From Clostridia bacterium (GTDB lineage: Bacteria; Bacillota; Clostridia; Oscillospirales; CAG-382), in contig JAFYPA010000052.1 of the NCBI GenBank assembly GCA_017560085.1, positions 65,928 through 129,927 on the forward strand: a DNA stretch of 64,000 nucleotides, in the 5' to 3' direction. Position numbers and translations under genes: made by a program. Under the pieces are notes generated by a model, which did not search any database, was not told the DNA's origin, and saw only the letters and a program-made list of their open reading frames with translations. This document shows positions 16,725 to 51,462 of the stretch, one piece after another; the first letter of the stretch is position 1, and each line of letters begins with the position of its first letter.

Positions 16725-16732
16725 CGAGGTTG

Positions 16733-16763
16733 ATTGCAAAGAATTCTGCGAATTCTTTGCAAT
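16733..16763. repeat. Perfect 14-bp inverted repeat with 3-nt spacer (operator or RNA hairpin)
   Basis: ATTGCAAAGAATTC tgc GAATTCTTTGCAAT lies between the two GH-A-like paralogs. No U-run follows it on the mRNA strand. Confidence 0.85.
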
Positions 16764-16789
16764 CTTCATTGATTTTAAATTGCTTTGGG

Positions 16790-25006: not shown

Positions 25007-26473
25007 TTACTTCTTTTCTGCTTCGTATTCAGCCTTTATGGACTTGAACAAATCATAAAGGTCCTTTGTTGTAAGGTCATTGTCACCGTCTACGTCTGCG
25101 ATAACAGCCTCGCCCCAGTCGTGGTTAAGGTCCTTAATACCCATTGCGATGTATTCGGCTACTCTCTGAAGGTCGTAGCTCTGGATTCCGCCGTCTGCGT
25201 CCATATCGCCGTAGTTGATGTAGTAGTAGCCGCTGTTCTTGAAGTATTCTTCAGCCTTGGAGCCCTTAACTGTAACGTATGTCGGACCGCTTGTGCTTCC
25301 GAATGCTGTGGAAGCGAGTGCTTCGATGCTTGCGGGTACTGTTACATAGGAGAACCAGAGGTTGCCGTAGCCGCCTTCTGCTATAGTCTTTACGGTTTCG
25401 GGAATTCTGTAGTAGTAAAGCTCAACATCCTCAGGAGTTTCGCCGAAGCAGTTCCAGAAGGAGCCTACATTAACATTTACGATTACACCTGCATCGAGCT
25501 GATAAAGCTTTCTGTCATTCCAGAATGCGCATTCACCGATTGTTGCAAGCTTGCTTGCCTTTGTGCCTGTGTTCTTGAAGCTTACAAGCTCGGAGCAGTT
25601 TGCGAAGGAGCAGAAGCCGATGCTTGTAAGGCCGCCCTTGTATTCAACTGTCTTAAGGGATGTACAGCCTGCAAATGCCATATCGCCAACCTTTGTGCAG
25701 GATGCGGGAATTTCTATGGATTTAAGGCTTCTGCAGCCGTAGAATGCGTTGTTGCCGATTGTAACGAGATCCTCGCCGAGGTCAACGGATGTGATGCCCT
25801 TGCCGAAAAATGCATCAGCAACTGCAAGTGTACCATCGGGGAGAACAACATCTGTCTTTGAGCCGTTGTACTTTACAAGCACGCTTCCGAGCATTACGAA
25901 TTCATCTGTCAGACCGTCCATATAAGGTGTGAGACCGAATACGGATGAGCCTATGTCGGAAAGCTTTGTCTGAGCCGATGTGTTTGTTACGCTTGTAAGC
26001 TTGGGGCAATAATAGAATGAGTTATTACCGATTGTTGTAATCTTGGAGTTCTTTGAGCTTGAGTTAAAAGCAACGCTGTAAAGCTTGGGACAGTATGAGA
26101 AGCAGTTCTCACCGATTGTTACAAGGTTTGTAGCGTTTGTGAAGGAAACGGTTTCGAGAGTTTCAATACCGGAGCCTACGCCGTCTGCAATTGCGATAAT
26201 CTTGCATTCTGTGCTGCCCGACTTTACCGTTGCGGGAACTGCGGCACCCTTTGCGGTTTCGGAAACGGCAATTACCTTTGCGGTCTTTGCGGATGTATCA
26301 CATTCGTATGTAAATACGCCTGAGGTTACCTCGTTGATAGCGAGAAGCTCTGCTTCCTCTGTAAGAACGGCTTCCTCTGTGATTTCTTCAACTTCCTGTG
26401 CATTTACTGCTACTGCACTTCCGAATACGGAAAGTGTTGCGAGAGATATCGCCAAAATCTTCTTGAAGTTCAT
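25007..26473 (-). CDS. Secreted BspA-type leucine-rich-repeat protein with C-terminal dockerin
   Basis: Signal peptide MNFKKILAISLATLSVFGSAVAVNA. LRR units recur (IGxxAFxxCxxLxSVxF). The C-terminal duplicated Ca-binding segments DMDADGGIQSYDL and DVDGDNDLTTKDL indicate a dockerin. Confidence 0.75.
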   Translation of the reverse strand: MNFKKILAISLATLSVFGSAVAVNAQEVEEITEEAVLTEEAELLAINEVTSGVFTYECDTSAKTAKVIAVSETAKGAAVPATVKSGSTECKIIAIADGVGSGIETLETVSFTNATNLVTIGENCFSYCPKLYSVAFNSSSKNSKITTIGNNSFYYCPKLTSVTNTSAQTKLSDIGSSVFGLTPYMDGLTDEFVMLGSVLVKYNGSKTDVVLPDGTLAVADAFFGKGITSVDLGEDLVTIGNNAFYGCRSLKSIEIPASCTKVGDMAFAGCTSLKTVEYKGGLTSIGFCSFANCSELVSFKNTGTKASKLATIGECAFWNDRKLYQLDAGVIVNVNVGSFWNCFGETPEDVELYYYRIPETVKTIAEGGYGNLWFSYVTVPASIEALASTAFGSTSGPTYVTVKGSKAEEYFKNSGYYYINYGDMDADGGIQSYDLQRVAEYIAMGIKDLNHDWGEAVIADVDGDNDLTTKDLYDLFKSIKAEYEAEKK

Positions 26474-29261: not shown

Positions 29262-29293
29262 ATTATGCATTATGCATTATGAATTATGCATTA
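29262..29293 (+). repeat. Tandem heptamer array, 4.5 copies (ATTATGC ATTATGC ATTATGA ATTATGC ATTA)
   Basis: Same heptamer as the 16690-16724 array but on the plus strand. It lies between two terminators with no gene downstream. Confidence 0.9.
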
Positions 29294-29327
29294 AAAAATC
29301 CATCCCCTGCCGAAGCAGAGGATGGAT
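29293..29327 (-). terminator. Intrinsic terminator of the giant surface-protein gene (also readable on the plus strand)
   Basis: The minus strand reads ATCCATCCTCTGC ttcg GCAGGGGATGGAT followed by TTTTT. It lies 30 nt after the stop at 29359-29361. Confidence 0.75.
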
Positions 29328-29358
29328 CTTTTATTTGATTCCGATGAAAAATCAGGAA

Positions 29359-32300
29359 TTACTTAAGGTTGCTGCCACTTACAGTACCGAAGTTTGCCTT
29401 AACGATACCGAGGTCGGTTACGTTAACTGCGCCGTCTTCGTTGATGTCAACTGTGCTCTTGTACTCATCTGTAGCTGCGGAGTCGAATGCTCTTACAACT
29501 CTGATGAAGTCGGAGAGATCAACTGTGCCGTCACCGCAGATTGCAGTGGTGGATTCCTTGATGTCACCGCCGAGTACTGTAATCTCAACAACGTTGCCTG
29601 CCGCAGATACGGTAACCTCTTCAAGTGCTGTGACGTAACCGTTCTTAGCAACCTTGATCACGATTGTATCGCCAACCTTTGCATCCTTGAATACATATTC
29701 AAGAGTTGCTTCTGTGTTGCCTATATCATCAATTACTACAGGTTCATCAAGGTCCTTCCAAATGTAACCGATGTTGGAAACTGTTTCGCCATCCTTGTCA
29801 TCGAAGGTTACGATAACCTTAACGTCAGCAGTTGTGATTTCAAGCTCTGTATCTGCATGTGTTGTGTAAGCTGTTGCAACTCTTGTTACTTCGAGACCGT
29901 CTACATAGAGAGCCACGAGGTAGTTGCCTTCTGCGTCAACATACTTTTCAGCATCTTCAACGTCTGCGATATCGAGAAGCTCGAATGCAGGAGTGCCTGC
30001 TGCTTCGTAAGCTGCTCTCTGGTCTTCTGTCATCTTAGCAGCGATTGTTGCGATAACAACCTCTTCTGTTGCATCGATGTAGCCGTCTGCATCATTTGCG
30101 GAGCCGTCCCATACGAATGCTACGCCGTCTTCGCTCATAGCAAGCTCAATGCCGAGGTAGTTTGCAATACCTTCTGCAAGAACAAGTGCGTTGGAAGCAT
30201 CAGGATCGAATGTCATGTAGTCGCTGTTGAATGCGATACCGAATGCACCTGCGTTAACCTTACCGCCCTTGTAAGCAACCTTGATTGTGTAGTCGCCTGT
30301 TACGGGGTTGTAGTTACCGTATGTCTTGTATTCGTAGTCAGCTTCAACAACTGCTTCGATGATGTCATCCTTGTGAGCTGTGTATACAACTGCAATCTTA
30401 TCTGTGTCGAGGCCATTTGTGTAAGGAGCTACGAGGTAGTTTGTACCGTTGAAGTACTTAGGATCTGCGTCTGCCGAAACAACATATTCAAGGAACTTGT
30501 CCGGGAAGGAAGCTGTTGCATTGAGTACGAATGTTGCAATGAGAACCTCTTCGTTTGTTGCATCAATGTATCCGGGAGCTTCTTCGATTGCCCATGTGTT
30601 TGCGTAGTAGTCATCGCCCTTTGCAAAGATGGGAGATACTGCTGTACCTATTTCGGAGAAGAGTGTTACGCCTTCTGCAGGAATTACTTCAACAAGTCCG
30701 GGAAGAACGAAGCCGAAGGAGCCCATGTGAGCCTTAACGTTTGTAATCTTGAGCTCAACTGTGTATGTGCCTGCTGCTTCATCGTATACACCGTATGTCT
30801 TGTATTCTGCGGGCTCAACGATTGTGCTCTTGAATACGGGAACGAGTGTTGTGTCTTCTGCGAATGTGAATTCATCAACAACGTCTGTTGTTCCTTCAAC
30901 AGCCCAGCCGAGGAATTCGTGGTCAGCCTTTTCGGGGGCTGTACCGTTGAATCTTACTGCTTCGCTGTTGAGTGCGTCGATTGCGTAGAGAACAGCGCCG
31001 TCTTCGCCCTTGAATGTTACTGTTGCAACTGTGGGTTCGGACTTGAAGAGGTACATGGAGTCAATGTATACATATTCTCCGTTAGCGGCAAGTGCGCTTG
31101 CCTTAACCTCGTTCATAGGTCTTATGTGGAACTGGATGGAGAGGTCGGGAGTCTTGCCGTCTGCTCTGTCCATCTTGTCTACTACATATGTCCACTTGCC
31201 TGCTTCCATATCAACGCTGAGCATATCAGCCGCTACAAGAGTTGTATTCTCCCAAGGATGCTTCTGATACCAAACGTTGAACTTTCTTGTTTCTGTGTTC
31301 ACGCCGGGAACATAGTAGTATCTGTATACTGCGTATTCGTAAATTGCGGGGTTAAGAACTGTGCTGTTAGCACCTGTTGAGTAGTTGAGAGGATATCTGC
31401 CGGAGCCTTCGATATTGATAGAGGTTGTTGTTGCGTTACCTTCGCTACCGGGGATAATCTTAACTGCTTCAACGCCATCAATTGTTGCGTTTTCTCTTGT
31501 AAATACGCCTGCTACATTGTTAACTACACCGAGGTCTGCTGCAACATAGTTCTTGTATGCCGATTCGGGCATTGCGATTTCGTTGAATGTTGCTGTAAGT
31601 GTTGCGCCACCTGCGGGAGCTGTGTATGTAGCATCAACGTCAGCTGTGCCGTCGTTCCAAGCCTTGAATGTGTAGTAAGCATCCTTTGTGGGAGCGGGAA
31701 CTGTTGTTACTGCGGGGAATGTTACTGCCGCGCCTACCTGGTATTCTGCTTCTGTTTCTGTGCCGTTTACAACGAACTTAACAATTGCATACTCAACCTC
31801 TTCTTCAACAGTTACGAATTCAACTGTATGTTCGCCTGCTGTTGTGATGCCTGTGATGATGTCGTTTGTATAGTTTTCAAGGAGGATTGCTTCGCCACCG
31901 TCAATCTTAACAGCGTTTGCTGTGGAATCTGCGGGAAGCTCGTATGTGAAGCCCTTGAGAACTATTGCCTTACCCCAGTTGGAGTCAATATTTGTACGAT
32001 CTGCGGGATATGTTTCCTGTGCGTTTGTAGCAGCGTGGAGCTTACCGCCGATTGCCTTAACTACGATTGCGCCTGTATCTGTTACATTTGCAGTCATATT
32101 GTTGTTAAGGATTACTACTCTTGTAGCATCGTCGGGATCAGCCGCACCTGTCTGCTTGTTTGTACCAACCTGGATTTTGCCGATTGTACCGCCGTTATAT
32201 TCAACTACGGTTACACCTGCACGAACAGAAGCTGTCTGAGACTTATCTGTGTCGTAAACCTTGGATACGGAGGAGCCTGTGATTGTGATATCACCTACTG

Positions 32301-35300
32301 TACCGTCGTTGATTGTGAAGTATCTGAGACCGGAGTAGTTTGTAACAGCAGTATCAGCAGAAGAACCGAGGTTGATGTAGCCTACAGAACCGCCGTTGAC
32401 ATTAACATTGTTGATACCGTATACAGCCTGATTACCCTTCCAGCCGTGACCGTTTCTGATTGCACCTACTTCACCACCGTAAACGTTGATTGTAGATGTA
32501 CCTCTGTAGGTCTGACCGGACTGAACACCAAGGTCAACTCTTCCGAATGTACCGCTCTTGATATTGATAATACCGTTATCCTTGAGCTGGTTGTTGTAGT
32601 GGAGGAAGCCTATCTTCTGTCCGTTGACTGTTAAGTTTTCACCGAAGGTGAGCTCATAACCCATAGACATGATACCGCCGTCACCACTGGATGCATTAAT
32701 CTCAAGGTTGTTGAATTCGATGTCGTTGCCGAGTCTGAGGTGAGAGTCGCTGCTGCCGTACTTCATGTCGAATACGGATTCAACTGTCTGACCTGTGATT
32801 GTAATCTTTCTGTTTGCGCCCTTGAGGAAGTCATTTGTAGAAGAAGCAGACTCATTGCTCTTGGAGTATGTACCAACTACAACGATTGTGTCGATGTCTT
32901 CATTTGCAAGAACAACTTCCTGTGCTCTCTTAAGAGTCTTAACGAGAGTTGCGGGTGTAAGACCATCGTTTGTATCAGCACCTGCGTCGCCGAGGTATAC
33001 AGCGTTTTCGAATGTTCTTACTGTTGCTTCCCAAACTGCTGTGTATGTTGCACCTGCAGATGTGATAGCTGTAAGCTCGGGAGTCCAGCCCTTGAATGTG
33101 TAGCCGTCCTTTGTGGGAGCCGCGGGAGCTACGGGAGTTTCGTCAATCTTTGTTTCAACTGTTACAGTTGCTGCGCCGTCTGCAAACTTACCACCGTTAG
33201 CGTCAAAGATTGCATTTGCGGATGTAACAACACTTACAGTTGTGAATTCAGCAGTATTAACACCTGCAACGAACTTGGATGCAGGGATTACACCGTTAAG
33301 GTCTTCGAGAAGCATTGTTTCTTCGCCAACCTTAACAGCATTTGCTGCAGAGCCTTCGGGAAGCTCGTATGTATAGCCGTTGTGTGTTGTTGTTACAAAA
33401 TCGTTTGCAACAGTAACGTCTGCGTGAAGCTTTGCGCCAATTGCCTTGATTACGATTGCATCTGCATCTGTAACCTTGCCTTCAACGTAGGAGTCGTTGT
33501 TGTAGATTACGATTCTCTTTGCATCGGGGTCGTCTGCCTTACCCTTTGTGATGCTACCCTCGAGAATGCCGGGAGCATTGATTTCAATTACGGTTACACC
33601 TGTTGCGGTGCTTGTCTTTGAACCGTCTTTATTTGAATCCTTGGATGTAATGGTCATATTGCCTGTTACCTTACCGCCGTTAAGGGTGAAGTAACGGAGA
33701 CCGTTGTAGCTGTTAACAGCTGCATCTGTAGCACTGTCAAGGTTGAATGCCTCGATTGTACCGCTGTTAAGGATTACCTTACCTGTACCATTGAATGTCT
33801 GCTTTGTACCGGAGCCGTGACCGAACTTGACGCTGCCAACGGTAGCACCATCGATAACTATTGTGGATGTACCGTAGTAGCTGCCGTCTGTCCAGTTACC
33901 AACATGAACAGAACCCCATGTACCTGCCTTGAGGGTGATTGTAGAATCAGCTGCGGTTTCAAGCTTGTTGCCTCCGTAGTAGAACTGGGAGAGTCTTGCG
34001 TTTGTAACAACGCCTGTACCGATTGTGATATCGTTACCCTGAGCCATGAAGCGACCGTCGCCATCCTTAATCTTGATGGTTACATTGTCATAGTCAACAG
34101 AGCCTGTGTGTCTGAGGTGACCTGCGCTTACGTCGAATACGTCGGAAGAGCCGTTGTAACCTCTAACCTTGATTGTCTTGCCTGCTACACCGAATGTAAT
34201 TGCATCGGAGTTGAGCTGACCGTTACCGATAACATAGAGAGTGTCAAGGCCTTCTGTCTTAAGAAGTGTTTCAGCCTTGGAAAGTGTCTTTACTGCGAAC
34301 TTGGATGTACGTCCGTGGTTTGCATCGTCACCTGCGGTTGCGTTTACATAAACTGCGTTTGCTTCTTCGTAGCCGATGATGTAAGGTGTGAAGTCGTAGT
34401 TGTTTGCGCTATATTCGTCGCTGAAGAATGCGTAGCCTGCGATGTCATAGTAGAAGTCAGCTCTGATCTTATCTGTCTGTACTTCACCGAGGAGTCTCAT
34501 ATGCATCTGCTTGAAGTCTTTGAGACCTGCCTTTTCCATCTTGATAACAACGCGTTCCCATGTGCCGTCAGCCTTAAGAGGTGCGGAAGCATAGTATCTG
34601 TCGCCGATGCCTGTACCCTGGAGAGGACGAATGTTGGGAGTACCGGTCTGGTTGGTTCTCATAATAACCACATAATATACAAGACCGTTTTCAACTGTCA
34701 TACCGAGGTTTGCATAAGAGTCGCAGTATGTTTCTGCGGGTGTTGCGGGAGCTGTGCCGTCCTTGAATGCATATCTCTTGTATACATATCTTGTTTCGGC
34801 ATCTGTGCCCGTTGTAACGGACATATTGCTTCCGGAAGCAGTATAGAAGTGTGTGAATGTGTTTGCTGCAAACATCTTCACGGGCTCGTTTACAACGAGA
34901 GCTTCCCAAACTGCTGTGTATGTTGCGCCTTCAGCTGTGATTGCTGTAAGCTCGGGAGACCATCCCTTGAATGTGAAGCCTGCCTTTGCGGGAGCTTCGG
35001 GAGCTACGGGAACCTCACCGATTGTTGTTACAACTGTCTTTGTTGTTTCTTCGCCCCAAGCACCGCCGTTTGCGTTGAATGTTGCGTTTGCTGTTGTGGG
35101 AGCTACGGGAGCGTCTTCCCAAACGTAAACTGCGAGAATCTGTGCAGCCTTGATTGTGCTGTTGTCAAAGTCTGCGGGAGCAGCGTACTTGATGATGTCG
35201 CCTTCTGCAAGGTCTGCCTTGAAGGAAACAACGAAGTCTGCTGTGCCTTCCTTAACTGTAGCAAGGTTAAGTGTACCTGCAACATCGCCTGCTTCGAGGT

Positions 35301-38300
35301 AGAAGCCTCTCTTTGTGGAAGCAGAGGGAGATGCATTGATTACGTATGCTACGTTGATGTCTTCGCCTGTGATGGGTGTTTCAAAGCCGAGGTACTTACC
35401 GTCATTCCACTTGTACCATGTGCTTACAACACCTTCGGGGAAGAGTACGGATGTTACGTTGCCGCTTGTTCCGTAGTAGCTGGATGTTGTTGTCTTGCCT
35501 GTAGAGCCTTCTGTATCCTTTGCAAGACCGGGAACTGCGAGAGCGGAGTTAACCGTTGTGTAAACTGTACCGTCTGCATTGTAGTTCTGTGCGAATGCAC
35601 CCTCGTACTTGTCGCCGTTCTTTGTTGTCTTGAATACTGTTGCATCTGCGGGGATGGGAGAGTTTGCAATGTCGGAAACGAGAGTAATTGTTACTTCACC
35701 GTCTGCGATCATATCAGCTTCTTCCCAAACTGCATAGTAGGATGCATCCTGAGTTGCTGCGAATTCGCCTGCAACGAGAACATCTGTAGAGCCCTGTGCC
35801 GCCCAACCCTTGAGGTAGTAACCGGGCTTTACGGGACGTGCAAATGTGTCGTTTGTAGCCGCATTTTCAAGACCCTTATCGGACCATACGGGGAGAACGT
35901 CTTCTGTTGCGCCGATTGCAACTGTCTTTTCTACGAAGAGTGTATCACCGTCATAGAACTTGAGTGTTGCTGTTGTGGGAGCATTTGCTTCCCAAACTGC
36001 TGTGTATGTTGCACCTGCAGCTGTGATAGCTGCAAGCTCGGGAGTCCAGCCCTTGAATGTGAAGCCTTCCTTTGCGGGTGCTTCGGGAGCTACGGGAACT
36101 TCACCGATTGTTGTTACAACTGTCTTTGTTGTTTCTTCGCCCCAAGCACCGCCGTTTGCGTTGAATACTGCATTTGCTGTTGTGGGAGCGAGTGTGCCTT
36201 CTGTAAGGAATTCAACTGTTGTTACGCCTTCAGCGAGAGCGAATGTAAGGTCTTCGAGGAGGTCAACTTCGTTACCTTCCACATCGTATTCCTTAACTGT
36301 GTCGCCGTTTGTAAGTCTTACATACTTAACGGAATCGTTGGGTGTAAGAACTACGGATGCATAGTCAGCGGAGTATGCAACGCCACCGAGGTTACCGTTG
36401 TACTTAACTGCGTAGGATGCACCTGTGATTGCACCAACTGTTGCCTTGTCTGTGTTAGCCTTGATAACGGACTTGCCCTTAACAACACCGGATGTTACTG
36501 TGATAGGACCTACAGTACCGTCCTGGATGTCGATGTATGCATTACCGCCAACTTCCTTACCGATGCTGATTTCACCTACATTAGCGTTGTCCTTGATTGT
36601 AATAGCAAGGTTGCCTGTCATGTAGGAGTATCCTTCTGCAAGAACAATCTTGGTAAGGTTTGCATTGTCCTTAACTGTAACTGTTGCGTTACCCTTAAGC
36701 TGTGCCTGAATGCCTTCCTTACCTACCTTACCTGCAACGACAAGGTATGCATTTGCATTCTTACCGAACACATAGTTAACGTCACCGTTTGTGAAGTTAC
36801 CACTCCAGCCGGAGCAACGAACCAATACCTTTGAGGGAGTTTCGATTGTAAGTGTGTTACCGTTAGATGTACCTGAGCCACCGTCAGCTGTAGCGTTTAC
36901 ATAAAGTGCGTTGGCGTCTGTTGATGTTGTTGTAAAGGTTTCTGTGAGTGTGAGGTTGTTACCGAATGCGTTAAGACCTCTTTCACCGTTACCCTTGTTG
37001 AATGCAACATTGTCGAGTATGATATCGGCATTCTTATCTGTACCGAATGTCACACTGTTTGTGCCCATGTTAATCGCACCGCCGGCGGATGTGATTACGA
37101 ATGTACCACCGTTGTGTGAAAGTGTGAGTGAGCCTGTGAGGTTAATATCCTTTTTAAGAGCAAATACTACCTTCTTGCCTTCAGCTGTCTTTTCCTTAAC
37201 AGGAGTAGAAATTACATCTGTTAAGTAAACAATTTCATAGCCTGCTGCTCTGTAAGCCGCGATGTGTGCAAGCTCGTCCTTAACAACAAACTCGATTGTG
37301 TTAACAGCACCCTCTGTGATCTTGTCAAGAGAGATTTCGCCGTTAAGATCTGCGAGCTCATATGTTGTGGATGTTTCGCCTGCTGTAATCTTGATAGCAT
37401 CAGCATCGCTGCTTGCGTTTGCTGTGTATGTGAACTTGTTGAGAGTTGCACTTGCGTAGTCTGCGGATACTGTTGTATCAGCCGCTACCTTACCGCCCTT
37501 AACATTAAGAACAGTAACAGGTCCTGAGGTTGTGCCGGGTTCAACGCCGTCGTTGAAGATTGCATAAACCTTGGAGTTTTCGTTATCGTTTGTGTGTTCC
37601 TTTACGATTTCAGAAACAGAACCCTTGTTAGCTGTGATAACCCAGAGAGCTTCTCTCTTTTCAGCTGTACCGATACCGGAGGAGTGTCTGCCTGTTGTAT
37701 TAATCTTTGTGATGGAGCCACCGTCAAGTGTGATTTCACGGAGACCGCTGTAGCTACCGATGGAGCCCTTACCGGAGCCACCGCCTGTTGCGTTAGCTGT
37801 GATTGTGCCAATCTTTGCATTGTCCTTGAGGTTAACTCTGATTGCGCCGTATGTCTTGATTACATTGTCGTAACCCTGACCGTGAGCGGAGAGTGTATTA
37901 ATTACTGTGTTACCTTCGAGGTTAACTGTTACATCACCCTTGAATGTCCAGCTACCGCTGTAGATACCGGGCATAACCTTATCGATTGTACCGCCCTTAA
38001 CGGTAATTGTGTTGAGCATGGGGCTGGGGATGTTACCGGAGTTGTTACCGCCTGCCGCATAGTAGAAGTTTGCGAGAACTGTGGCTGTACCGCTACCGAG
38101 TGTAAGATTACCGGAAGTGATACCTGCGAACTTCATGTTTGCGCCAACTGTGATATCGTGGTTTTCGAGTGTGAGCTTACCGTCCCATGTTGTCTGCTGC
38201 TGGAATGTGAAGTTATCCATTTCAACATCGCCCATGAGGTATGCACAGTATGCGGAGCAGTCGATGATGTCTGCAACATTGTCATCTGTGTAGCCGAGGT

Positions 38301-40299
38301 AAGTAATCTTTCTGCCTGCTGTACCGAAACCTATAGACTTTCCGTTTGTCTTGTCGTCAGCACCTACCGCAACAGTACCCATAATGTATACTGTATCTAC
38401 GATAGAGCCTTCAGCATCCATGATTTCTCTTGCTCTCTTGAATGTCTTAACGGGAGCTGCGGGAGAGTTACCTCTGTTAGCATCGTCACCGCTTGCGGAA
38501 ATGTAGAGGTCTTCAAAGAGGTCAGCTTCGGATTCGAAGAAGCCTACTGTTGTTGTACCGTCTGCAAAGAGAGAAGCGGGGATAAGATCATTTTCAAGGT
38601 CTGCAAGCTTGAGAACTGTTGTACCAACTCTTACAGAGTCGTAATCGTCGGAGTTTGCTTCATATGTGAAGCCGTTGAGAGTTGCCGCATATGTGGAAGC
38701 ATCGTAGCTTACATCAGCCTTAAGATAACCGCCTGTTACGTCGATTGTCTTTGCCTTTGTATCTGTAACCTGACCTGCATATGTAGCCATTGTGCCGTTG
38801 TTGAAGATGATAACTCTTGTAGCTTTGTCTTCTTCGGGTGTCTTATCGTCAATGTTGTTACCGAGCGAGATATTGCCCTTAACAGCGTTAACTGCATTGA
38901 TTTCGAATACGGTTACGCCTTCTCTTGCGGGATTAGCGCTTGCACTGTCGCCGTATGTGGAGCTTTCTGTTGTTACGATTGCATCAACAGAACCACCGTT
39001 GATTGTGTAGTATCTGAGACCCTTGTACTGTGTCGCAGCAACAGCACCATTGGAGTTAAGGGTGATACCGCCCACATTACCACCGTTGATGTTAACGATG
39101 AACTTACCGTATGCTGTAGGTGAGCTCTTCCAACCGTGTGCAAGGTTGATTGTACCGATACTACCGCCGTTAACAGTAAGAGTTGTGTTGCCCTTATATG
39201 TACCGCTGATAGGTCCTATAAGAACTCTTGCGAAGTTACCGCTGTTAACTTCGAATTCGTTGTTTGTACCGCTGTAAGCAGAAAATTCTGTCTTGTCATC
39301 CTTGTTTGTAAGACCCTCGCCGAAGACAAGCTTGTTGCCTCTTGCCTGAATCATACCGTCGCCGGAGCCGTCCTTGATTGTGATGTTTTCGAAAACAATG
39401 GGGCCTGCAAGAACAAGGTCATCGTCTGTGCCGCTTGCATTAGCATCGTAGTTGAATACAACATTTGCTGTCTTACCTGTTACGGTAATTGTTCTGCCTG
39501 CCACACCGATTTCTTCAGCGTCCTTGGCTGTCTTGAAGTTGTCGAGAATAACATATGTATCAACAGATGCATTAGCCTTTGCTACAGCATTTGCTCTTGT
39601 GAGTGTAGCAACGGGAGCATCCGCGGAAAGACCGGAGTATATATCCTTACCGTTAGCGGAAAGGTATACTACCTCTTCACCGTTACCGCCGGCTATGCAA
39701 GGTGCAAAGTCAAAGTTCTTTGCGCTGTATTCGTCAGCGAAGAATGCCATTGCAGATACGTCGTAGTAATGCTCTTCAGTGAAGTTAGCATTTTCGTAAC
39801 CGCCTGCGAACATAATGTGAAGCTGGTTGAATTTTTCAAGATTTTCGTTTTCAATCTTGATTACAACACGCTCCCACTTGCCGTCTGCCTTGTAAGCAGA
39901 AGACTTGTAGTCACCGCCGCCGTTACTAGTGCTGCCTGTAACTGTCGCACCGTAAACTCTTACCCAGGGGGTAGTAGCAAAGTTTGTACGAACGTCAGCA
40001 GCGAAATAAATAACGCCATCATTAGGTGTTATTGTGCCGAGACCGTATGAGTCGTAGTGAATACTCTTGGAAGCATCCACGAGCTCGTGATGGTAGTAGG
40101 TAAGATTGTTTTCTGCATCGTACAATCTTTCCTTGGAAAGACCTTCCTTTGATCTGAACACATCACTGCTGCCTACCGCAGTATAGATGTGCAAAGGATC
40201 GGAAATGGTCTGTGTTTCCTGTGCATTTGCAGTAAAGCTGAAGCAAGATACAACCATCATTGCTGTCAGTATCGCCGCAAACAATCGCTTGATTTTCAT
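29359..40299 (-). CDS. Giant (3,646 aa) secreted multi-module protein: CBM-like modules, about five right-handed beta-helix modules, Listeria-Bacteroides-type repeats, two cohesin-like modules, C-terminal dockerin
   Basis: Start moved to ATG 40299 (MKIKRLFAAILTAMMVVSCFSFTANA signal peptide, SD AAAGGAG). Beta-helix N-caps recur (VYLSANGKD, LYISASGDDANRGNSPAAPVKT, VYVNATAGDDANHGRT, VYLGDAGADTNDGLTPATLVKT). The repeat FNANGGAWGEETTKTVV...GFTFKGWTPEL...ATYTAVWE recurs. The dockerin reads CGDGTVDLSDFIRVV...DINEDGAVNVTDLGIV. Confidence 0.85.
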   Translation of the reverse strand: MKIKRLFAAILTAMMVVSCFSFTANAQETQTISDPLHIYTAVGSSDVFRSKEGLSKERLYDAENNLTYYHHELVDASKSIHYDSYGLGTITPNDGVIYFAADVRTNFATTPWVRVYGATVTGSTSNGGGDYKSSAYKADGKWERVVIKIENENLEKFNQLHIMFAGGYENANFTEEHYYDVSAMAFFADEYSAKNFDFAPCIAGGNGEEVVYLSANGKDIYSGLSADAPVATLTRANAVAKANASVDTYVILDNFKTAKDAEEIGVAGRTITVTGKTANVVFNYDANASGTDDDLVLAGPIVFENITIKDGSGDGMIQARGNKLVFGEGLTNKDDKTEFSAYSGTNNEFEVNSGNFARVLIGPISGTYKGNTTLTVNGGSIGTINLAHGWKSSPTAYGKFIVNINGGNVGGITLNSNGAVAATQYKGLRYYTINGGSVDAIVTTESSTYGDSASANPAREGVTVFEINAVNAVKGNISLGNNIDDKTPEEDKATRVIIFNNGTMATYAGQVTDTKAKTIDVTGGYLKADVSYDASTYAATLNGFTYEANSDDYDSVRVGTTVLKLADLENDLIPASLFADGTTTVGFFESEADLFEDLYISASGDDANRGNSPAAPVKTFKRAREIMDAEGSIVDTVYIMGTVAVGADDKTNGKSIGFGTAGRKITYLGYTDDNVADIIDCSAYCAYLMGDVEMDNFTFQQQTTWDGKLTLENHDITVGANMKFAGITSGNLTLGSGTATVLANFYYAAGGNNSGNIPSPMLNTITVKGGTIDKVMPGIYSGSWTFKGDVTVNLEGNTVINTLSAHGQGYDNVIKTYGAIRVNLKDNAKIGTITANATGGGSGKGSIGSYSGLREITLDGGSITKINTTGRHSSGIGTAEKREALWVITANKGSVSEIVKEHTNDNENSKVYAIFNDGVEPGTTSGPVTVLNVKGGKVAADTTVSADYASATLNKFTYTANASSDADAIKITAGETSTTYELADLNGEISLDKITEGAVNTIEFVVKDELAHIAAYRAAGYEIVYLTDVISTPVKEKTAEGKKVVFALKKDINLTGSLTLSHNGGTFVITSAGGAINMGTNSVTFGTDKNADIILDNVAFNKGNGERGLNAFGNNLTLTETFTTTSTDANALYVNATADGGSGTSNGNTLTIETPSKVLVRCSGWSGNFTNGDVNYVFGKNANAYLVVAGKVGKEGIQAQLKGNATVTVKDNANLTKIVLAEGYSYMTGNLAITIKDNANVGEISIGKEVGGNAYIDIQDGTVGPITVTSGVVKGKSVIKANTDKATVGAITGASYAVKYNGNLGGVAYSADYASVVLTPNDSVKYVRLTNGDTVKEYDVEGNEVDLLEDLTFALAEGVTTVEFLTEGTLAPTTANAVFNANGGAWGEETTKTVVTTIGEVPVAPEAPAKEGFTFKGWTPELAAITAAGATYTAVWEANAPTTATLKFYDGDTLFVEKTVAIGATEDVLPVWSDKGLENAATNDTFARPVKPGYYLKGWAAQGSTDVLVAGEFAATQDASYYAVWEEADMIADGEVTITLVSDIANSPIPADATVFKTTKNGDKYEGAFAQNYNADGTVYTTVNSALAVPGLAKDTEGSTGKTTTSSYYGTSGNVTSVLFPEGVVSTWYKWNDGKYLGFETPITGEDINVAYVINASPSASTKRGFYLEAGDVAGTLNLATVKEGTADFVVSFKADLAEGDIIKYAAPADFDNSTIKAAQILAVYVWEDAPVAPTTANATFNANGGAWGEETTKTVVTTIGEVPVAPEAPAKAGFTFKGWSPELTAITAEGATYTAVWEALVVNEPVKMFAANTFTHFYTASGSNMSVTTGTDAETRYVYKRYAFKDGTAPATPAETYCDSYANLGMTVENGLVYYVVIMRTNQTGTPNIRPLQGTGIGDRYYASAPLKADGTWERVVIKMEKAGLKDFKQMHMRLLGEVQTDKIRADFYYDIAGYAFFSDEYSANNYDFTPYIIGYEEANAVYVNATAGDDANHGRTSKFAVKTLSKAETLLKTEGLDTLYVIGNGQLNSDAITFGVAGKTIKVRGYNGSSDVFDVSAGHLRHTGSVDYDNVTIKIKDGDGRFMAQGNDITIGTGVVTNARLSQFYYGGNKLETAADSTITLKAGTWGSVHVGNWTDGSYYGTSTIVIDGATVGSVKFGHGSGTKQTFNGTGKVILNSGTIEAFNLDSATDAAVNSYNGLRYFTLNGGKVTGNMTITSKDSNKDGSKTSTATGVTVIEINAPGILEGSITKGKADDPDAKRIVIYNNDSYVEGKVTDADAIVIKAIGAKLHADVTVANDFVTTTHNGYTYELPEGSAANAVKVGEETMLLEDLNGVIPASKFVAGVNTAEFTTVSVVTSANAIFDANGGKFADGAATVTVETKIDETPVAPAAPTKDGYTFKGWTPELTAITSAGATYTAVWEATVRTFENAVYLGDAGADTNDGLTPATLVKTLKRAQEVVLANEDIDTIVVVGTYSKSNESASSTNDFLKGANRKITITGQTVESVFDMKYGSSDSHLRLGNDIEFNNLEINASSGDGGIMSMGYELTFGENLTVNGQKIGFLHYNNQLKDNGIINIKSGTFGRVDLGVQSGQTYRGTSTINVYGGEVGAIRNGHGWKGNQAVYGINNVNVNGGSVGYINLGSSADTAVTNYSGLRYFTINDGTVGDITITGSSVSKVYDTDKSQTASVRAGVTVVEYNGGTIGKIQVGTNKQTGAADPDDATRVVILNNNMTANVTDTGAIVVKAIGGKLHAATNAQETYPADRTNIDSNWGKAIVLKGFTYELPADSTANAVKIDGGEAILLENYTNDIITGITTAGEHTVEFVTVEEEVEYAIVKFVVNGTETEAEYQVGAAVTFPAVTTVPAPTKDAYYTFKAWNDGTADVDATYTAPAGGATLTATFNEIAMPESAYKNYVAADLGVVNNVAGVFTRENATIDGVEAVKIIPGSEGNATTTSINIEGSGRYPLNYSTGANSTVLNPAIYEYAVYRYYYVPGVNTETRKFNVWYQKHPWENTTLVAADMLSVDMEAGKWTYVVDKMDRADGKTPDLSIQFHIRPMNEVKASALAANGEYVYIDSMYLFKSEPTVATVTFKGEDGAVLYAIDALNSEAVRFNGTAPEKADHEFLGWAVEGTTDVVDEFTFAEDTTLVPVFKSTIVEPAEYKTYGVYDEAAGTYTVELKITNVKAHMGSFGFVLPGLVEVIPAEGVTLFSEIGTAVSPIFAKGDDYYANTWAIEEAPGYIDATNEEVLIATFVLNATASFPDKFLEYVVSADADPKYFNGTNYLVAPYTNGLDTDKIAVVYTAHKDDIIEAVVEADYEYKTYGNYNPVTGDYTIKVAYKGGKVNAGAFGIAFNSDYMTFDPDASNALVLAEGIANYLGIELAMSEDGVAFVWDGSANDADGYIDATEEVVIATIAAKMTEDQRAAYEAAGTPAFELLDIADVEDAEKYVDAEGNYLVALYVDGLEVTRVATAYTTHADTELEITTADVKVIVTFDDKDGETVSNIGYIWKDLDEPVVIDDIGNTEATLEYVFKDAKVGDTIVIKVAKNGYVTALEEVTVSAAGNVVEITVLGGDIKESTTAICGDGTVDLSDFIRVVRAFDSAATDEYKSTVDINEDGAVNVTDLGIVKANFGTVSGSNLK
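33026..33228 (-). repeat. Diverged third copy of the ~200-bp intragenic repeat (Listeria-Bacteroides-type repeat module)
   Basis: It shares the 5' ~80 nt (GCTTCCCAAACTGCTGTGTATGTTGCACCTGCAG...) with the copies at 34901 and 35987, then diverges. It encodes ANAIFDANGGKF...GYTFKGWTPELTAITSAGATYTAVWE. Confidence 0.7.
34901..35103 (-). repeat. Intragenic 203-bp repeat, copy A
   Basis: My manual alignment to 35987-36189 gives 12 mismatches in 203 nt, with a central run of more than 60 identical nt. Confidence 0.85.
35987..36189 (-). repeat. Intragenic 203-bp repeat, copy B
   Basis: See copy A. It encodes TTANAVFNANGGAWGEETTKTVVTTIGEVPVAPEAPAKEGFTFKGWTPELAAITAAGATYTAVWEA. Confidence 0.85.
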
Positions 40300-40360: not shown

Positions 40361-40389
40361 AGTATAATACATTTTTGATTGTTTGTCAA
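40361..40389 (-). promoter_or_regulatory. Sigma-A-type promoter of the giant gene
   Basis: The minus strand reads TTGACA (40389-40384), 17 nt, TATACT (40366-40361), about 60 nt upstream of ATG 40299. Confidence 0.6.
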
Positions 40390-40554: not shown

Positions 40555-41277
40555 ATGAAAAAATCCGAAAGGAAAAACGCCTTGAACACCAATAACACAC
40601 CCAATCGCAATGCGATGTATGAGGTCATTGCGGACAAAATAGAAGAAATGATACTCTCGGATGAGATGCAGGCATCGGAAAAGCTTCCCTCGGAATCCGT
40701 GCTTTCGGAAAAGTTCGGGGTTTCCCGTCCCGTGGTGCGCGAGGCACTCAACACACTTCGCGAGCGCGGGCTTATAGCCTCACGGCAGGGTGCGGCATCC
40801 GTTATAACAGAGCCCGATGCGGATACGCTTCTTCGTAATTTCAACAGAATAATCCTTATGAAAAAGGTATCGCCGATGCAGGTATATCAGGTACGAATGG
40901 TGCTTGAAACGCTGTGTGCGGGTCTTGCTGCTAAAAAATGCACGCAGAGCGAGATAGAAAATCTTCGTACCCTGAACGAAAAGGTGCGCACCTCAAAAGG
41001 AAACTACGAGCTTCGTGCAAGGACAGACCTTGAATTCCACATAGCAATTGCGGAATGCTCGGGCAATCCCCTGCTCTCGGTAATGCTTGAGGCTCTGGCG
41101 TCTCTTCTTGAGCCGATTATTATAAACAATCTCAAAAATCTTGAAAAGGACACGGGAGATTTATTCCACGGCAGGATTATTGATGCGATAGAGTCGGGAG
41201 ATGAGGCTTCATCCGAAAAGTTAATGCGTGAGCATCTGACGGAGTCGGCAATGCTTTACGGTGCGGATTTTTATTAA
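40555..41277 (+). CDS. GntR-family (FadR/FCD subfamily) transcriptional regulator
   Basis: wHTH ESVLSEKFGVSRPVVREALNTLRERGLIASRQGAASVI followed by an all-helical FCD-like C-terminus. The start is uncertain (ATG 40555 or ATG 40615); neither has an SD. Confidence 0.8.
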   Translation: MKKSERKNALNTNNTPNRNAMYEVIADKIEEMILSDEMQASEKLPSESVLSEKFGVSRPVVREALNTLRERGLIASRQGAASVITEPDADTLLRNFNRIILMKKVSPMQVYQVRMVLETLCAGLAAKKCTQSEIENLRTLNEKVRTSKGNYELRARTDLEFHIAIAECSGNPLLSVMLEALASLLEPIIINNLKNLEKDTGDLFHGRIIDAIESGDEASSEKLMREHLTESAMLYGADFY

Positions 41278-41346
41278 AATTATAAAATCGAATACAAAAG
41301 TAAAATGCCTTGGCAGGGTGTATGGCTCTGTCAAGGCAAATTTGTT

Positions 41347-42354
41347 TTATTTCAAAAAGAGCGTGAACAGCTTTTTGATAACGCTTATGATTACAACAAT
41401 ATCCGAAAAATCATTACTTTCGGATGCTTCCGTTTCGGTCGTAGCATCTGCAAATTTATCATGTGCGAAATCTATCAAATGGTTATAAAACTTTTCCTCG
41501 CATTCGTAAGTAATCCCGTTATAATCAAAGCAATATGTCCCGGGAATTTTCGTAAGGGTATGCACCTTTCCGTCAGCCGTCGTGAATTTAATCACCAATG
41601 CTTCGAAATCACCGCCACTCGGAAAAACCGTTTCGCCTTTCTCGTAAAACGGTATCGAATTAAAGTTCAGGCAGAAGGATTCTATTTTATCCTCGTCTGT
41701 CAGAGTGAACTTCATATTCTGCTTGTAATATTCGGGAGTCGGATTTTTCGGTATGCCCTGCCCCCAAGATGCTGAATATTCTATTTTTACAACATCGCAT
41801 TCACCGGGAACAAAACGGTGCGTGCCAAGTCCGAGACTTGCATGTGACTCAAAGCCCACTCTTTCCGCTATGCTCTCCGAAAGCTCACCCCGGTAAACAC
41901 AGTATATTCCTTCCGCCATAGTCACAAGCTCGGAGAATTCAACAACATATGACTCGTTATTGTGCGTGAGAATATAACCGCAGCTATCGTCCTTAATTGT
42001 CTCAAGTGCAATACTGAATTTTGATTCCTTGCCGTTTTTGTCCTTTACCTGAACATAGCACCAGGCGGCACCGGAAACGGGGTAAAGATTTTCCGTTGTG
42101 ACGGTCAGATTCACATTTTTCATAGCATCAATGCAGACAGCGATGCTTTCCGTGTTATCCGTTGTATAGCCGAAATTATAAGATGTCCTCTTGCCGTCTG
42201 CGGAAATATAGTTGAGGTCTAAAACGGAAAAATAAAATTCCTTTATATCCGAAGCCGATGGCAAAAAGTCCGACGGGGCTTTGGCGTATGTACACATCAC
42301 AAAAAGCGTTGAAATAATGAGGGAAACGACTAAAGTGAAGAATGTCTTTTTCAT
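41347..42354 (-). CDS. Secreted hypothetical protein
   Basis: 335-aa ORF with signal peptide MKKTFFTLVVSLIISTLFVMCTYA and SD. I recognise no family. Confidence 0.5.
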   Translation of the reverse strand: MKKTFFTLVVSLIISTLFVMCTYAKAPSDFLPSASDIKEFYFSVLDLNYISADGKRTSYNFGYTTDNTESIAVCIDAMKNVNLTVTTENLYPVSGAAWCYVQVKDKNGKESKFSIALETIKDDSCGYILTHNNESYVVEFSELVTMAEGIYCVYRGELSESIAERVGFESHASLGLGTHRFVPGECDVVKIEYSASWGQGIPKNPTPEYYKQNMKFTLTDEDKIESFCLNFNSIPFYEKGETVFPSGGDFEALVIKFTTADGKVHTLTKIPGTYCFDYNGITYECEEKFYNHLIDFAHDKFADATTETEASESNDFSDIVVIISVIKKLFTLFLK

Positions 42355-42520
42355 ATTAACACACCTTTCAAATTATTTGTACAAGTACAGTATATAGCAG
42401 AAAGCGGAAAATTTCAATACTTTTACCCTAACTGTAATTCAGGTGTTACTTTGGAAATATATTTCGTTAATATTTTTAACATCTTGTACGAAACAAAAAG
42501 GGGGGAATACGACATAATGA

Positions 42521-42554
42521 CGAAAGAAAAATCGGGCAGCCGAAGCCACCCGAT
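42521..42554 (-). terminator. Intrinsic terminator after the SBP gene
   Basis: The minus strand reads AUCGGGUGGC UUCG GCUGCCCGAU (10-bp stem, UUCG loop) followed by UUUUCUUU. Confidence 0.75.
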
Positions 42555-42589
42555 TGTATAACATTATTGAATTAAATCCAACTCAAAAA

Positions 42590-44032
42590 TTATTCGTAGA
42601 TTTCTGCGAGAGTTGCAATCTTTTCTTCCCAAACGTCCTTTCTGGAAGCAACGAGAGAGGAAAGTGTGTTACCGCTCTTTGCTGTTACGATGGAAGCACC
42701 GTCGAAGCCGACTACCTGGTCAAGGAATCTTGCGGAGTTTCTGATAATCGGAATCATTTCTTCGGATTCTGTGTCTCTTGTGGACTTGATTGTAAGAATG
42801 ATATCGAAGTATACGGGAAGAACGAGATCGTTACTGTAGTATGCGAGTGTTTCGAGAACAGCACCTGTCTTGTCGAGATCCTGGTTTGTAACGGGGATGT
42901 ATGTAAGGCAGGAGATGTTGGGAGTTCTGGAGTAGTAGTTTTCCTGATCCTCGTCAAGCTTGGGGTAAGGAATGAAGCCTACATCGATGTCTTCAAGAGC
43001 TCTTGTTCCGGGAACCATGCTGATGAAGGAGTCGTTGAAGAGAAGTCTGCCTTCGTTGAACATCTTGTCGTCAACACCGTACTTTGCACCCTCGAAGAAT
43101 GCGCCTTCGTTGTCGAATACTTCAATCATCTTGTCAACGATTGTGTATGTACGCTCGTTGTCAACGTTGAGTATAGGCATATTGTTGTCATCCTTTGTGA
43201 GACATTCTCCGCCGTAGCCTGCAAAGAGTGCCTGAAGCTGCTCGTACTGCCAGCCGCCGAAGCCGAGTCTGTCGTCGTCACGGTTGATTATACCGTCACC
43301 GTTGAGGTCCTTTGTAGCTGCCTTGATGTAGTCAACGAACTTGTCGTGTGTCCATGTGCCGTCAAATACCATCTGGTAGGGGTATTCGAGACCGAGCTCG
43401 TCGCACATTGTCTTGTTGAAGATGAGACATTCTGCGCCGGAGAAGGAGGAAAGGTTGTAGTCACCTGTCATACAGAACACCTTGGAGCCGAAGCAGATGT
43501 CACGCTGTACATTGGAGTACCACCAGTCGTTTTCAAGGTTGATGTAGGGGATTTCGTTCCAGTCAACGAACATACCCTCTTCGATAAGTGTGGGCATACC
43601 GCTGTGCTGAACGTGTGCGTATGCGTCGTATGTGGAGTCGCCGGCCTGAGTAAGAGTTCTGATTGTTGCTGTTTCAGCCTGCTGGTCGCCGCCTGTTGTA
43701 GGACGTGTGGAGGGAACGAAGTTCATTTCCGCAAGACCGAGGTGCTCCATTGTGAGCTTGTTTCTCTGGTAGATGGCATCGTTGAGCTCGTCGCCTGTTT
43801 CTTCCTCTGCAACATAGCTGGACTTAAGTCCCGAATAGCCGAGATACATATTGAAGGACTTGCCCTCAGCCGCACCTGCGGGAACCTTAAGAGTTGCACC
43901 CTCCTCTACCTCGAGGTCTGTGCTTGTTCCGGGAGTTACTGCTTCCTCGGGAGCCTTCTTGAGGCAGGATGTCATACCTGCTGTGATAACACCTGCAAGA
44001 AGAAGTGCGAGAATTCTTTTTGTGTTTTTCAT
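42590..44032 (-). CDS. ABC-transporter extracellular solute-binding lipoprotein (family 1, sugar type), no adjacent permease genes
   Basis: Lipoprotein signal MKNTKRILALLLAGVITAGMTSC. 480 aa, with Trp/Tyr/Asp-rich composition typical of carbohydrate SBPs. Confidence 0.7.
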   Translation of the reverse strand: MKNTKRILALLLAGVITAGMTSCLKKAPEEAVTPGTSTDLEVEEGATLKVPAGAAEGKSFNMYLGYSGLKSSYVAEEETGDELNDAIYQRNKLTMEHLGLAEMNFVPSTRPTTGGDQQAETATIRTLTQAGDSTYDAYAHVQHSGMPTLIEEGMFVDWNEIPYINLENDWWYSNVQRDICFGSKVFCMTGDYNLSSFSGAECLIFNKTMCDELGLEYPYQMVFDGTWTHDKFVDYIKAATKDLNGDGIINRDDDRLGFGGWQYEQLQALFAGYGGECLTKDDNNMPILNVDNERTYTIVDKMIEVFDNEGAFFEGAKYGVDDKMFNEGRLLFNDSFISMVPGTRALEDIDVGFIPYPKLDEDQENYYSRTPNISCLTYIPVTNQDLDKTGAVLETLAYYSNDLVLPVYFDIILTIKSTRDTESEEMIPIIRNSARFLDQVVGFDGASIVTAKSGNTLSSLVASRKDVWEEKIATLAEIYE

Positions 44033-44194
44033 TTTGCCGATTTCCTTTCGTGCATATTTTTTTGCAATACCATTTTATACTCTTTTTGTCAATTTTGCAA
44101 TAGGTAAAAATGGTAAAACCGTAACGGTAAAGTAAACTTTTTTACAAAATATCTCAAAGCGGACAAAATTCTTCCTTTCCCGCACTGTTCCGCC

Positions 44195-44223
44195 TTGACT
44201 TCACCGTTTTTTGGGAGTATAAT
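44195..44223 (+). promoter_or_regulatory. Consensus sigma-A promoter for araD/araM-like genes
   Basis: TTGACT (44195-44200), 17 nt, TATAAT (44218-44223). Confidence 0.65.
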
Positions 44224-44259
44224 ACACCCGACAGAACATATGAAAGCAGAGGAATCAAA

Positions 44260-50382: not shown

Positions 50383-50541
50383 TTCTGTATTGCTTCCTTT
50401 CACTATTGAGTTTAGAGAATTATACCACGGAAGCGAGCCGTAAATCAATAGATTTGAGTTTTTTTAGTTAAAATGCATATTTATTTGTAAAATATGTCAA
50501 TTTCCCGCAGAAGTGCAAAAAAGTTATTTTATGTCATACTG

Positions 50542-51361: not shown

Positions 51362-51399
51362 CGGATAAAAAATGTTTACACAAATATTGTTCCCGCCTC

Positions 51400-51428
51400 T
51401 TGAATTTTTACTTTAATAATGGTAAAAT
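51400..51428 (+). promoter_or_regulatory. Sigma-A promoter for uxuA
   Basis: TTGAAT (51400-51405), 17 nt, TAAAAT (51423-51428) with an extended TG. Confidence 0.55.
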
Positions 51429-51462
51429 ATAGAAAAACAAATATTACGAAAGGAATTAAGCT

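Follow-up and report, generated by a model that had tools for sequence, protein, structure and literature searches.

The stretch of DNA analysed here (the window) covers 64 kb of a Clostridia bacterium genome of the order Oscillospirales (GCA_017560085.1, contig JAFYPA010000052.1), and this report concerns one 11-kb gene on its minus strand, which encodes a modular protein of 3,646 amino acids (aa) with a signal peptide at one end and a dockerin at the other. The single uninterrupted reading frame runs from 40389 to 29359 (minus strand) and begins at the first in-frame TTG. The start codon is the ATG at 40299, spaced by 8 nt from an AAAGGAG ribosome-binding site; the TTG at 40389 was also considered as a start codon and was rejected, coinciding with the −35 hexamer of the promoter. 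A product of 3,646 aa is also called on the ENA contig XIEF21-1 scaffold_51, which carries the same region. The gene is intact, with promoter, ribosome-binding site and terminator:

40361-40389, minus strand: sigma-70-type promoter, TTGACA-17-TATACT, matching 11 of 12 consensus positions, about 60 nt 5′ of the ATG
29359-40299, minus strand: complete coding sequence, 3,646 aa plus stop codon
about 29291-29330, minus strand: intrinsic terminator, a 13-bp GC-rich hairpin followed by a T-run, about 30 nt past the stop codon, as read from the sequence

A frame of this length, recovered by short-read metagenome assembly, could in principle be a chimera or collapse of several repeat-bearing genes. 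The internal Flg_new (Listeria-Bacteroides) repeats, which are up to 94% identical across 203 nt, give some reason for such a suspicion, and the independent Logan contigs of the source sample are interrupted solely at these repeats, with alternative short joins there. We nevertheless consider this explanation extremely improbable. The same contigs cover the whole gene at an even depth of ~10x with zero mismatches, the longest near-identical internal repeat measures just those 203 nt and carries ~12 differences, 3,646 codons stay open, and in an independent genome (GCA_054284465.1) a syntenic ortholog, a single gene of 3,046 aa, shows its modules in the same general order. It is from the even depth, the mismatch-free tiling and the shortness of the repeats that we take the gene to be real and misassembly to be unlikely, and a frame of 11 kb without stops at 47% GC cannot, we infer, have originated by chance. 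An earlier reading of this DNA (the original prediction), made from the sequence alone, had given the gene a consensus-like promoter and a terminator of its own, both of which are borne out by the elements listed above; it had also raised the question of misassembly, and here the even tiling by short-read contigs and the agreement of the syntenic ortholog speak for one intact gene. Long open reading frames of up to 1,005 aa also run antisense to the gene within 29359-40299 (for example 33817-36834, plus strand); they were rejected as genes and are taken instead as shadow frames arising from the codon bias of the real gene.

Self-comparison together with family hidden Markov models (HMMs) yielded the following module map, in which A denotes modules resembling carbohydrate-binding modules (CBMs), B the solenoid modules, F the Flg_new repeats and C the cohesin-fold modules (all on the minus strand, from the N- to the C-terminus):

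40219-40299, minus strand: Sec signal peptide, aa 1-27, MKIKRLFAAILTAMMVVSCFSFTANA/QE with an ANA/Q cleavage motif, read directly from the translation
39685-40218, minus strand: A1, CBM-like jelly-roll module, aa 28-205, fold inferred from the A2 model
38527-39684, minus strand: B1, capped beta-solenoid, aa 206-591, family HMM 425 bits
37276-38523, minus strand: B2, capped beta-solenoid, aa 593-1008, family HMM 338 bits
36196-37245, minus strand: B3, divergent solenoid without the cap motif, aa 1019-1368, HMM 83 + 23 bits in two pieces
35983-36180, minus strand: F1, Flg_new repeat, aa 1374-1439, Pfam and own-repeat HMM
35716-35913, minus strand: F2, divergent Flg_new repeat, aa 1463-1528, HMM from the protein's own repeats, 21.6 bits
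35095-35694, minus strand: X1, module of ~200 aa, aa 1536-1735, matching no described family
34897-35094, minus strand: F3, Flg_new repeat, aa 1736-1801, Pfam and own-repeat HMM
34369-34893, minus strand: A2, CBM-like jelly-roll module, aa 1803-1977, AlphaFold model and Foldseek
33232-34368, minus strand: B4, capped beta-solenoid, aa 1978-2356, HMM 400 bits; modelled
33022-33222, minus strand: F4, Flg_new repeat, aa 2360-2426, Pfam and own-repeat HMM
31804-33015, minus strand: B5, capped beta-solenoid, aa 2429-2832, HMM 401 bits
31576-31788, minus strand: F5, Flg_new repeat, aa 2838-2908, own-repeat HMM
31030-31575, minus strand: A3, distant relative of A, aa 2909-3090, hhalign and iterated A profile
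30823-31029, minus strand: F6, Flg_new repeat, aa 3091-3159, own-repeat HMM
30364-30822, minus strand: C1, cohesin-fold module, aa ~3160-3312, AlphaFold model and Foldseek
29842-30348, minus strand: C2, cohesin-fold module with an inserted helix, aa ~3318-3486, AlphaFold model and Foldseek
29554-29841, minus strand: X module, Ig-like stalk, aa ~3487-3582, phmmer and Foldseek against the PDB
29380-29544, minus strand: dockerin, aa 3586-3640, Pfam Dockerin_1

In the whole protein, Pfam recognizes Flg_new (62.5 bits against a cutoff of 27) and Dockerin_1 and nothing else, and NCBIfam recognizes only the Listeria-Bacteroides repeat (TIGR02543, corresponding to Pfam PF09479; 29.3 bits against a cutoff of 20.95). 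About 85% of the protein thus lies outside the families described in these two libraries, and single A, B, X1, A3, C1 and C2 modules gave no credible match when searched against Pfam at E ≤ 10. For the Flg_new repeats, Pfam reports four stretches and an HMM trained on the repeats of this very protein detects six, which agrees with the at least six Listeria-Bacteroides repeats that had been counted before; the signal peptide, also foreseen, can be read in the translation and is 85% identical in the ortholog. Missing from that earlier inventory were the X module before the dockerin and the ~200-aa module X1. The latter, like A3, gave only chance-level matches in sequence and profile searches of the PDB and is unrelated to A and A3 by hhalign; its homologs in two related proteins (P0003 and P0004) directly precede a B module. 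At the DNA level, the F1 and F3 repeats (35987-36189 versus 34901-35103) are 94% identical and a third repeat (33026-33228) is 67% identical, and the similarity of F1 and F3 suggests a duplication within the gene, or a gene conversion, of recent date.

The last ~490 residues are, by predicted fold, a scaffoldin-type cassette of two cohesins, an X module and a dockerin. Dockerin_1 is matched at aa 3589-3636 with 27-34 bits against a Pfam cutoff of 22.9, and the second loop of the dockerin, DINEDGAVNVTD, is canonical when read directly. When the last 492 residues were compared with the PDB using phmmer, they matched the X-dockerin dyad of an A. cellulolyticus scaffoldin (4wi0_B, E 3.8e-8; 4u3s_B) as well as C. 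thermocellum CipA (2b59_B, its X module with a type-II dockerin; 5g5d_B; 3kcp_A). The module in front of the dockerin is assigned as an X module because the X-dockerin alignment starts inside it, and Foldseek likewise matched it to 2b59_B and 5g5d_B. We have also modelled aa 3126-3646 with AlphaFold from an alignment of ten co-linear homologs (predicted local distance difference test, pLDDT, 78); the dockerin part is of low confidence, as expected without Ca. The best Foldseek matches of this model are the structures of the ninth CipA cohesin with its X module and type-II dockerin (4fl4_L, 4fl4_C and 3kcp_A; E 1.5e-11 to 1e-10, probability 1.0), and many single cohesins of types I-III are matched as well, with probability 1.0 and template modelling (TM) scores of 0.5-0.57, including 4ums, 4uyq_A, R. 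flavefaciens ScaC (5lxv_A) and the A. cellulolyticus cohesin dyad 3l8q. These results are in keeping with the two cohesin-like modules and terminal dockerin of the original prediction.

The two cohesin-fold modules are distantly related to each other (phmmer E 8e-9; 32-39% identity over partial BLAST segments), and in the model of C2 an inserted helix, TEDQRAAYEAAG, sits between strands. An extra helix has been described in some cohesin groups (PMC13463774), and Flg domains are present in scaffoldin-like proteins (PMC13463774 and its preprint). The cassette, or a form of it with one cohesin, recurs in about ten related protein clusters, and a search of the GTDB species set returned a single carrier, the Oscillospiraceae metagenome-assembled genome (MAG) SIG622. 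Pfam matched a cohesin in just one of 43 relatives of the B family that were scanned.

Upstream of this cassette, the A modules (~180 aa) are predicted to be CBM-like jelly rolls outside the described sequence families, A1 by its homology to A2 (38% identity in the module alignment; BLAST E 1e-25). The AlphaFold model of A2 together with B4 reached a pLDDT of 85 and a predicted TM-score of 0.75. In Foldseek searches of the PDB, its A2 portion matched CBM22 (4mgs, 4qpw, 2wys), CBM6 (1gmm, 2v4v, 1uxz) and CBM4 (1k42, 3k4z) structures, and also CBM29, CBM61 and CBM11, with probability 1.0 and TM-scores of 0.5-0.65 over ~155-165 columns at 8-14% identity. A has the ~160-residue jelly roll of the CBM4/6/22 group (the BiXyn10A CBM, 4MGS/4QPW; CtCBM6, 1GMM; RmCBM4-2, 1K42) and, as in that group, sits directly upstream of a larger module; it differs in its low identity (9-14%) and in matching none of the CBM families in Pfam. 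A CBM- or beta-sandwich-like nature had been proposed from the sequence, and the A2 fold agrees with it, whereas of the three ~200-aa copies then counted two are clear (A1 and A2) and the third (A3) is only a distant relative. A3 is 19% identical to A, aligns to it by hhalign with a probability of 41% (E 2.8e-4 over the last 52 columns), scores 37.5 bits with an iterated A profile and is kept in six homologs. Members of the A family were seen in about a dozen of the best 150 B-family proteins.

The B modules, ~380 aa each and present in five copies, are predicted to form stacked solenoids, which make up about half of the 3,646-aa protein. Whether the whole protein or single modules were searched at E ≤ 10, no beta-helix family of Pfam or NCBIfam was matched (Beta_helix, DUF1565, Pectate_lyase_3 and Pel9A-like HMMs included), and sequence and profile searches of the PDB gave chance-level matches only. 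A profile of B does align by hhalign with two DUF1565-type proteins encoded in the window (E 8e-5 and 3e-4), over the 29-30-residue N-cap only, where the shared motif is VY(V/L)SxxGxDxNxGxxxxxPxxT(I/L)xxA. In the B4 model, a capping helix leads into rungs of ~25-29 residues, with short strands at regular intervals and a recurring hxhxGGxhxxh pattern, and then into a ~90-aa beta-sandwich subdomain; the C-terminal half is mostly above 90 pLDDT, and the strand-turn solenoid is confidently predicted. Compared with the DUF1565/beta-helix proteins (PF07602, PF13229; the two in the window among them), B has the N-cap and a solenoid model in common, but its body matches no HMM and each copy ends in a ~90-aa beta-sandwich subdomain of its own. 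The right-handed beta-helix modules of the original prediction are thus supported only in part, by the N-cap alignment and the solenoid model, and find no counterpart among beta-helix families; their number, about five, is recovered by the HMM, although B3 has no cap. The two window proteins (46251-47771 and 48853-50448, both minus strand; ~510-530 aa) have the DUF1565-type cap, weak Beta_helix matches and no signal peptide; they may be beta-helix proteins that stay in the cytoplasm or leave the cell by an unconventional route.

To see where else B occurs, a profile of the five copies was used in an exhaustive HMMER search of representative clusters, which returned 466 representative proteins with E-values of 1e-3 or below; of these, 154 reached 1e-10 and 32 reached 1e-30. 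Nearly all are large secreted proteins with 2-12 tandem copies, named 'hypothetical protein' and originating from MAGs of Ruminococcaceae, Oscillospiraceae or Clostridia. The Pfam scan of 43 relatives found Flg_new in 11, a dockerin in 11, GH43 in 5, SLH in 3, a GDSL esterase in 2 and CE2, F5/8-C and cohesin once each, with B itself assigned to no family. Some relatives end in hydrophobic, apparently transmembrane tails, and for one the annotation reads polysaccharide deacetylase. B thus appears to behave as an accessory surface module, arranged in tandem beside enzymes (GH43, GDSL, CE2, CE4) and combined with dockerin, SLH or apparent transmembrane anchors. To judge from these searches, it is a family undescribed in the curated libraries we searched, carried by large surface proteins of uncultured Clostridia.

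Alternatively, each capped beta-helix might be catalytic, as a polysaccharide lyase or hydrolase for which CAZy has no family yet, which would make the protein a five-headed, cellulosome-docked depolymerase with its own CBMs. The N-cap motif is also found on DUF1565- and PL9-like (polysaccharide lyase 9) beta-helix proteins, the best full-length PDB match is the catalytic unit of a GH87 (glycoside hydrolase 87) enzyme, itself a beta-sandwich plus beta-helix (E 1.6e-3, TM 0.2, a weak match), a CBM-like module stands directly before B1 and B4 as CBMs stand before catalytic modules, and adjacent genes suggest sugar-acid and deoxy-sugar catabolism. The corresponding best viral match, a phage 'right handed beta helix' protein, is weak too (E 2.8e-6, TM 0.17). 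We have aligned 254 B domains and found conservation at Gly, Ala, Tyr, Asn and hydrophobic residues and in the cap, whose Asp (87%) is the sole conserved charged residue; within the solenoid body, every acidic or basic residue (Asp, Glu, Lys, Arg, His) stays below 60%. Since charged residues are not conserved outside the cap, catalysis by B is argued against, and the conservation pattern together with the co-occurrence of separate, recognisable catalytic domains in B relatives favours a structural or binding role. Moreover, no lyase or glycoside hydrolase family was matched in Pfam, NCBIfam or PDB sequence searches, even at E ≤ 10, and the likeness to true beta-helix proteins ends after the 30 cap residues. 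We therefore regard the depolymerase explanation as improbable, and the polyspecific lyase/hydrolase array entertained in the original prediction finds no support in the 254 aligned copies; nor did Pfam, NCBIfam and PDB sequence searches return the beta-helix or carbohydrate-active families, whose absence the original prediction had named as refuting, so that at the sequence level it fails and evidence had to be sought in structures. There is also a small chance that B represents a new class of beta-solenoid, being either a hitherto undescribed, polysaccharide-active family of enzymes whose site varies between subfamilies or a modular, glycan-binding 'extension pole' of uncultured rumen Clostridia. 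As an extension pole, B would set the reach of cellulosome-like complexes, and A and X1 would be new CBM families.

The positional ortholog (P0001; 3,046 aa, 8001-17141 of JAZTCU010000008.1, GCA_054284465.1) is 600 aa shorter, and the same AraC, beta-eliminating lyase, tRNA-editing and LRR_5 genes lie downstream of it. It keeps the N-terminal series from the signal peptide through A1, B1, B2 and B3 as well as the C-terminal series F5-A3-F6-C1-C2-X-dockerin at 34-85% identity, has neither X1 nor one of the B modules, and carries an extra Flg_new repeat after A1. By this comparison, modules have been gained and lost within one orthologous gene, with conserved ends and a plastic middle. The gene is present in gut and bovine-gut metagenomes. 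By its Mfd core, the organism falls among uncultured Oscillospirales; the closest Mfd relatives are ~69% identical and bear the names Ruminococcaceae, Acutalibacteraceae, Oscillospiraceae or C. leptum.

Several neighbouring genes were also noted. At 40555-46199 and 50606-52512 lie a GntR/FCD regulator that is transcribed divergently, a solute-binding protein, UxuA and an S6PP-like hydrolase, together with a class II aldolase and an Fe-alcohol dehydrogenase that form a fuculose/rhamnulose-type pair. These genes suggest sugar-acid or deoxy-sugar catabolism, and the neighbourhood may hint that the large protein targets pectic or rhamnose-containing glycans. Three genes downstream, at 25007-26473 (minus strand), a secreted protein with BspA-type leucine-rich repeats (LRR_5, E 3.5e-37) carries a signal peptide and is likely another surface protein. 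The tandem paralogs at 14954-16762 and 16790-18460 (both minus strand) have the N-terminus NMKITRP.FP..FGG.GFHN in common; the latter weakly matches the GH30 C-terminal domain, and no family was matched by the former. A tandem heptamer tract, (ATTATGC)n, occurs between genes at 29262-29295 (plus strand) and 16691-16724 (minus strand), with five overlapping matches against 0 expected. In the source metagenome, the copy at 29.26 kb has a bin k-mer depth of ~478 compared with ~10 for the gene, and many different flanks, so that the tract looks like a multi-copy short element or microsatellite common to many loci or genomes.

Taken together, the protein is probably a non-catalytic, Sec-secreted adhesin that is also an adaptor scaffoldin of the cell surface or of a cellulosome. 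Of the roles put forward in the original prediction, it is accordingly the adhesin that also docks other proteins that the evidence favours, again as a probable reading. In such a protein, the dyad of X module and dockerin would plug into a cohesin of a cell-wall-anchored protein, as in CipA, ScaB and CttA, and each of the two cohesin-fold modules would bind a single partner with a dockerin, be it an enzyme or a further scaffoldin. In the ~3,100 residues on the N-terminal side, five beta-solenoids joined by Flg_new repeats would make up a long semi-rigid arm, and this arm would carry the CBM-like heads (A1, A2, probably A3 and possibly X1) outward to plant-cell-wall polysaccharide. Every binding event and ligand in this scheme, and the stalk role of B, is something that we infer.

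A number of observations weigh against this reading. The first Ca-loop of the dockerin, AICGDGTVDLSD, is degenerate when read directly, although a degenerate first loop is also a trait of type-II dockerins. The cohesin call comes from an AlphaFold model whose alignment had no more than 10 sequences, and the TM-scores are moderate. A jelly roll is in many cases not a CBM, and sugar binding by A is putative only; the beta-helix nature of B is weakly backed by structure search (TM ~0.2), and the pattern of conserved residues in B, while it argues against catalysis, does not exclude it, being compatible with catalytic residues specific to subfamilies. Metatranscriptome support is weak as well, consisting of patchy contigs of 90-99% identity from a related strain in one bovine dataset, one of which reaches upstream of the promoter. 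In addition, the Pfam Cohesin HMM (PF00963) does not match isolated C1 or C2 even at E ≤ 10, and across the 64 kb of the window this gene is the only one to encode a dockerin, a cohesin or any A or B module.

These last two points also bear on a further explanation, namely that the cohesin-fold modules are Ig-like spacers that bind no dockerin, and that the protein is a fibrillar adhesin anchored through its dockerin, with plant fibre, host mucus or other microbes as its possible targets. The model for such a protein would be the serine-rich-repeat adhesin of L. reuteri with its solenoid binding region (PMC5866549). Besides the silent cohesin HMM and the want of a dockerin-bearing client in the window, it has in its favour that the TM-scores to cohesins are just ~0.5 and that Flg_new repeats and beta-solenoids are characteristic features of the surface adhesins of Gram-positive bacteria. 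Yet the best structural match of the C-terminus is specifically the CipA cohesin-X-dockerin structure (E 1.5e-11), accompanied by dozens of cohesin chains at probability 1.0, and the order cohesin-cohesin-X-dockerin is exactly that of scaffoldin C-termini. Ruminococcal cohesins often escape sequence HMMs, moreover, and divergent ones of this kind have been validated by crystallography (PMC13463774). A pure adhesin is for these reasons a fairly unlikely description of the protein, and the combined adhesin and adaptor scaffoldin is retained.

The adaptor scaffoldin reading can be set beside several known systems. The C-terminal arrangement of cohesin, Ig-like X module and dockerin is that of CipA, with its ninth cohesin, X module and type-II dockerin (3KCP, 4FL4), and of the X-dockerin of A. 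cellulolyticus ScaA (4WI0, 4U3S), and the role presumed to be held in common with them is that of a scaffoldin anchoring to a surface cohesin. CipA, however, has nine type-I cohesins and a CBM3 without beta-solenoids, whereas the protein described here has two cohesins that Pfam does not see. In R. flavefaciens, the CBM protein CttA, which bears an X-dockerin (XDoc) dyad, and the scaffoldin ScaB dock on ScaE (PMC5301203). CttA consists of XDoc and two CBM-like modules and serves substrate adhesion, ScaB consists of XDoc and cohesins (PMC5301203), and the present protein has both kinds of module. All three are non-catalytic and XDoc-anchored (both by our reading in the present case) and from a rumen member of the Oscillospirales; unlike the present protein, CttA and ScaB have neither beta-solenoid arrays nor Flg_new repeats. 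The likeness to them is at the level of the dockerin and the X fold, and the R. flavefaciens XDoc has three characteristic insertions. For the solenoids, the serine-rich-repeat adhesin of L. reuteri offers a parallel, as its binding region is a non-catalytic beta-solenoid of the pectate-lyase fold (PMC5866549). This is a functional analogy only, between what are (in our case by proposal) glycan-binding adhesins with a non-catalytic beta-solenoid on a Gram-positive gut bacterium, and the L. reuteri protein differs in having a single solenoid and a sortase anchor (PMC5866549).

The type of protein is already known, as a cellulosomal scaffoldin or XDoc-anchored binding protein, and what is new is the stacked-solenoid architecture together with the B and A families, which are absent from the curated libraries searched. 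The finding extends the known repertoire of scaffoldins and adhesins and overturns no concept, unless B should prove to be catalytic or a new glycan-binding class. Most of the mass of the protein consists of these two module families that curated databases do not describe, and B may be a widespread, unannotated building block of Clostridial surface proteins; if A and B were defined, rumen metagenomes would be better annotated, and new CBMs might emerge. If the proposed reading is true, the cellulosome-like surface structures of an uncultured Oscillospirales bacterium of the cattle gut have a giant hybrid protein at their core, and this one protein merges roles that are split in R. flavefaciens between CttA (adhesion) and ScaB/ScaC (scaffolding).

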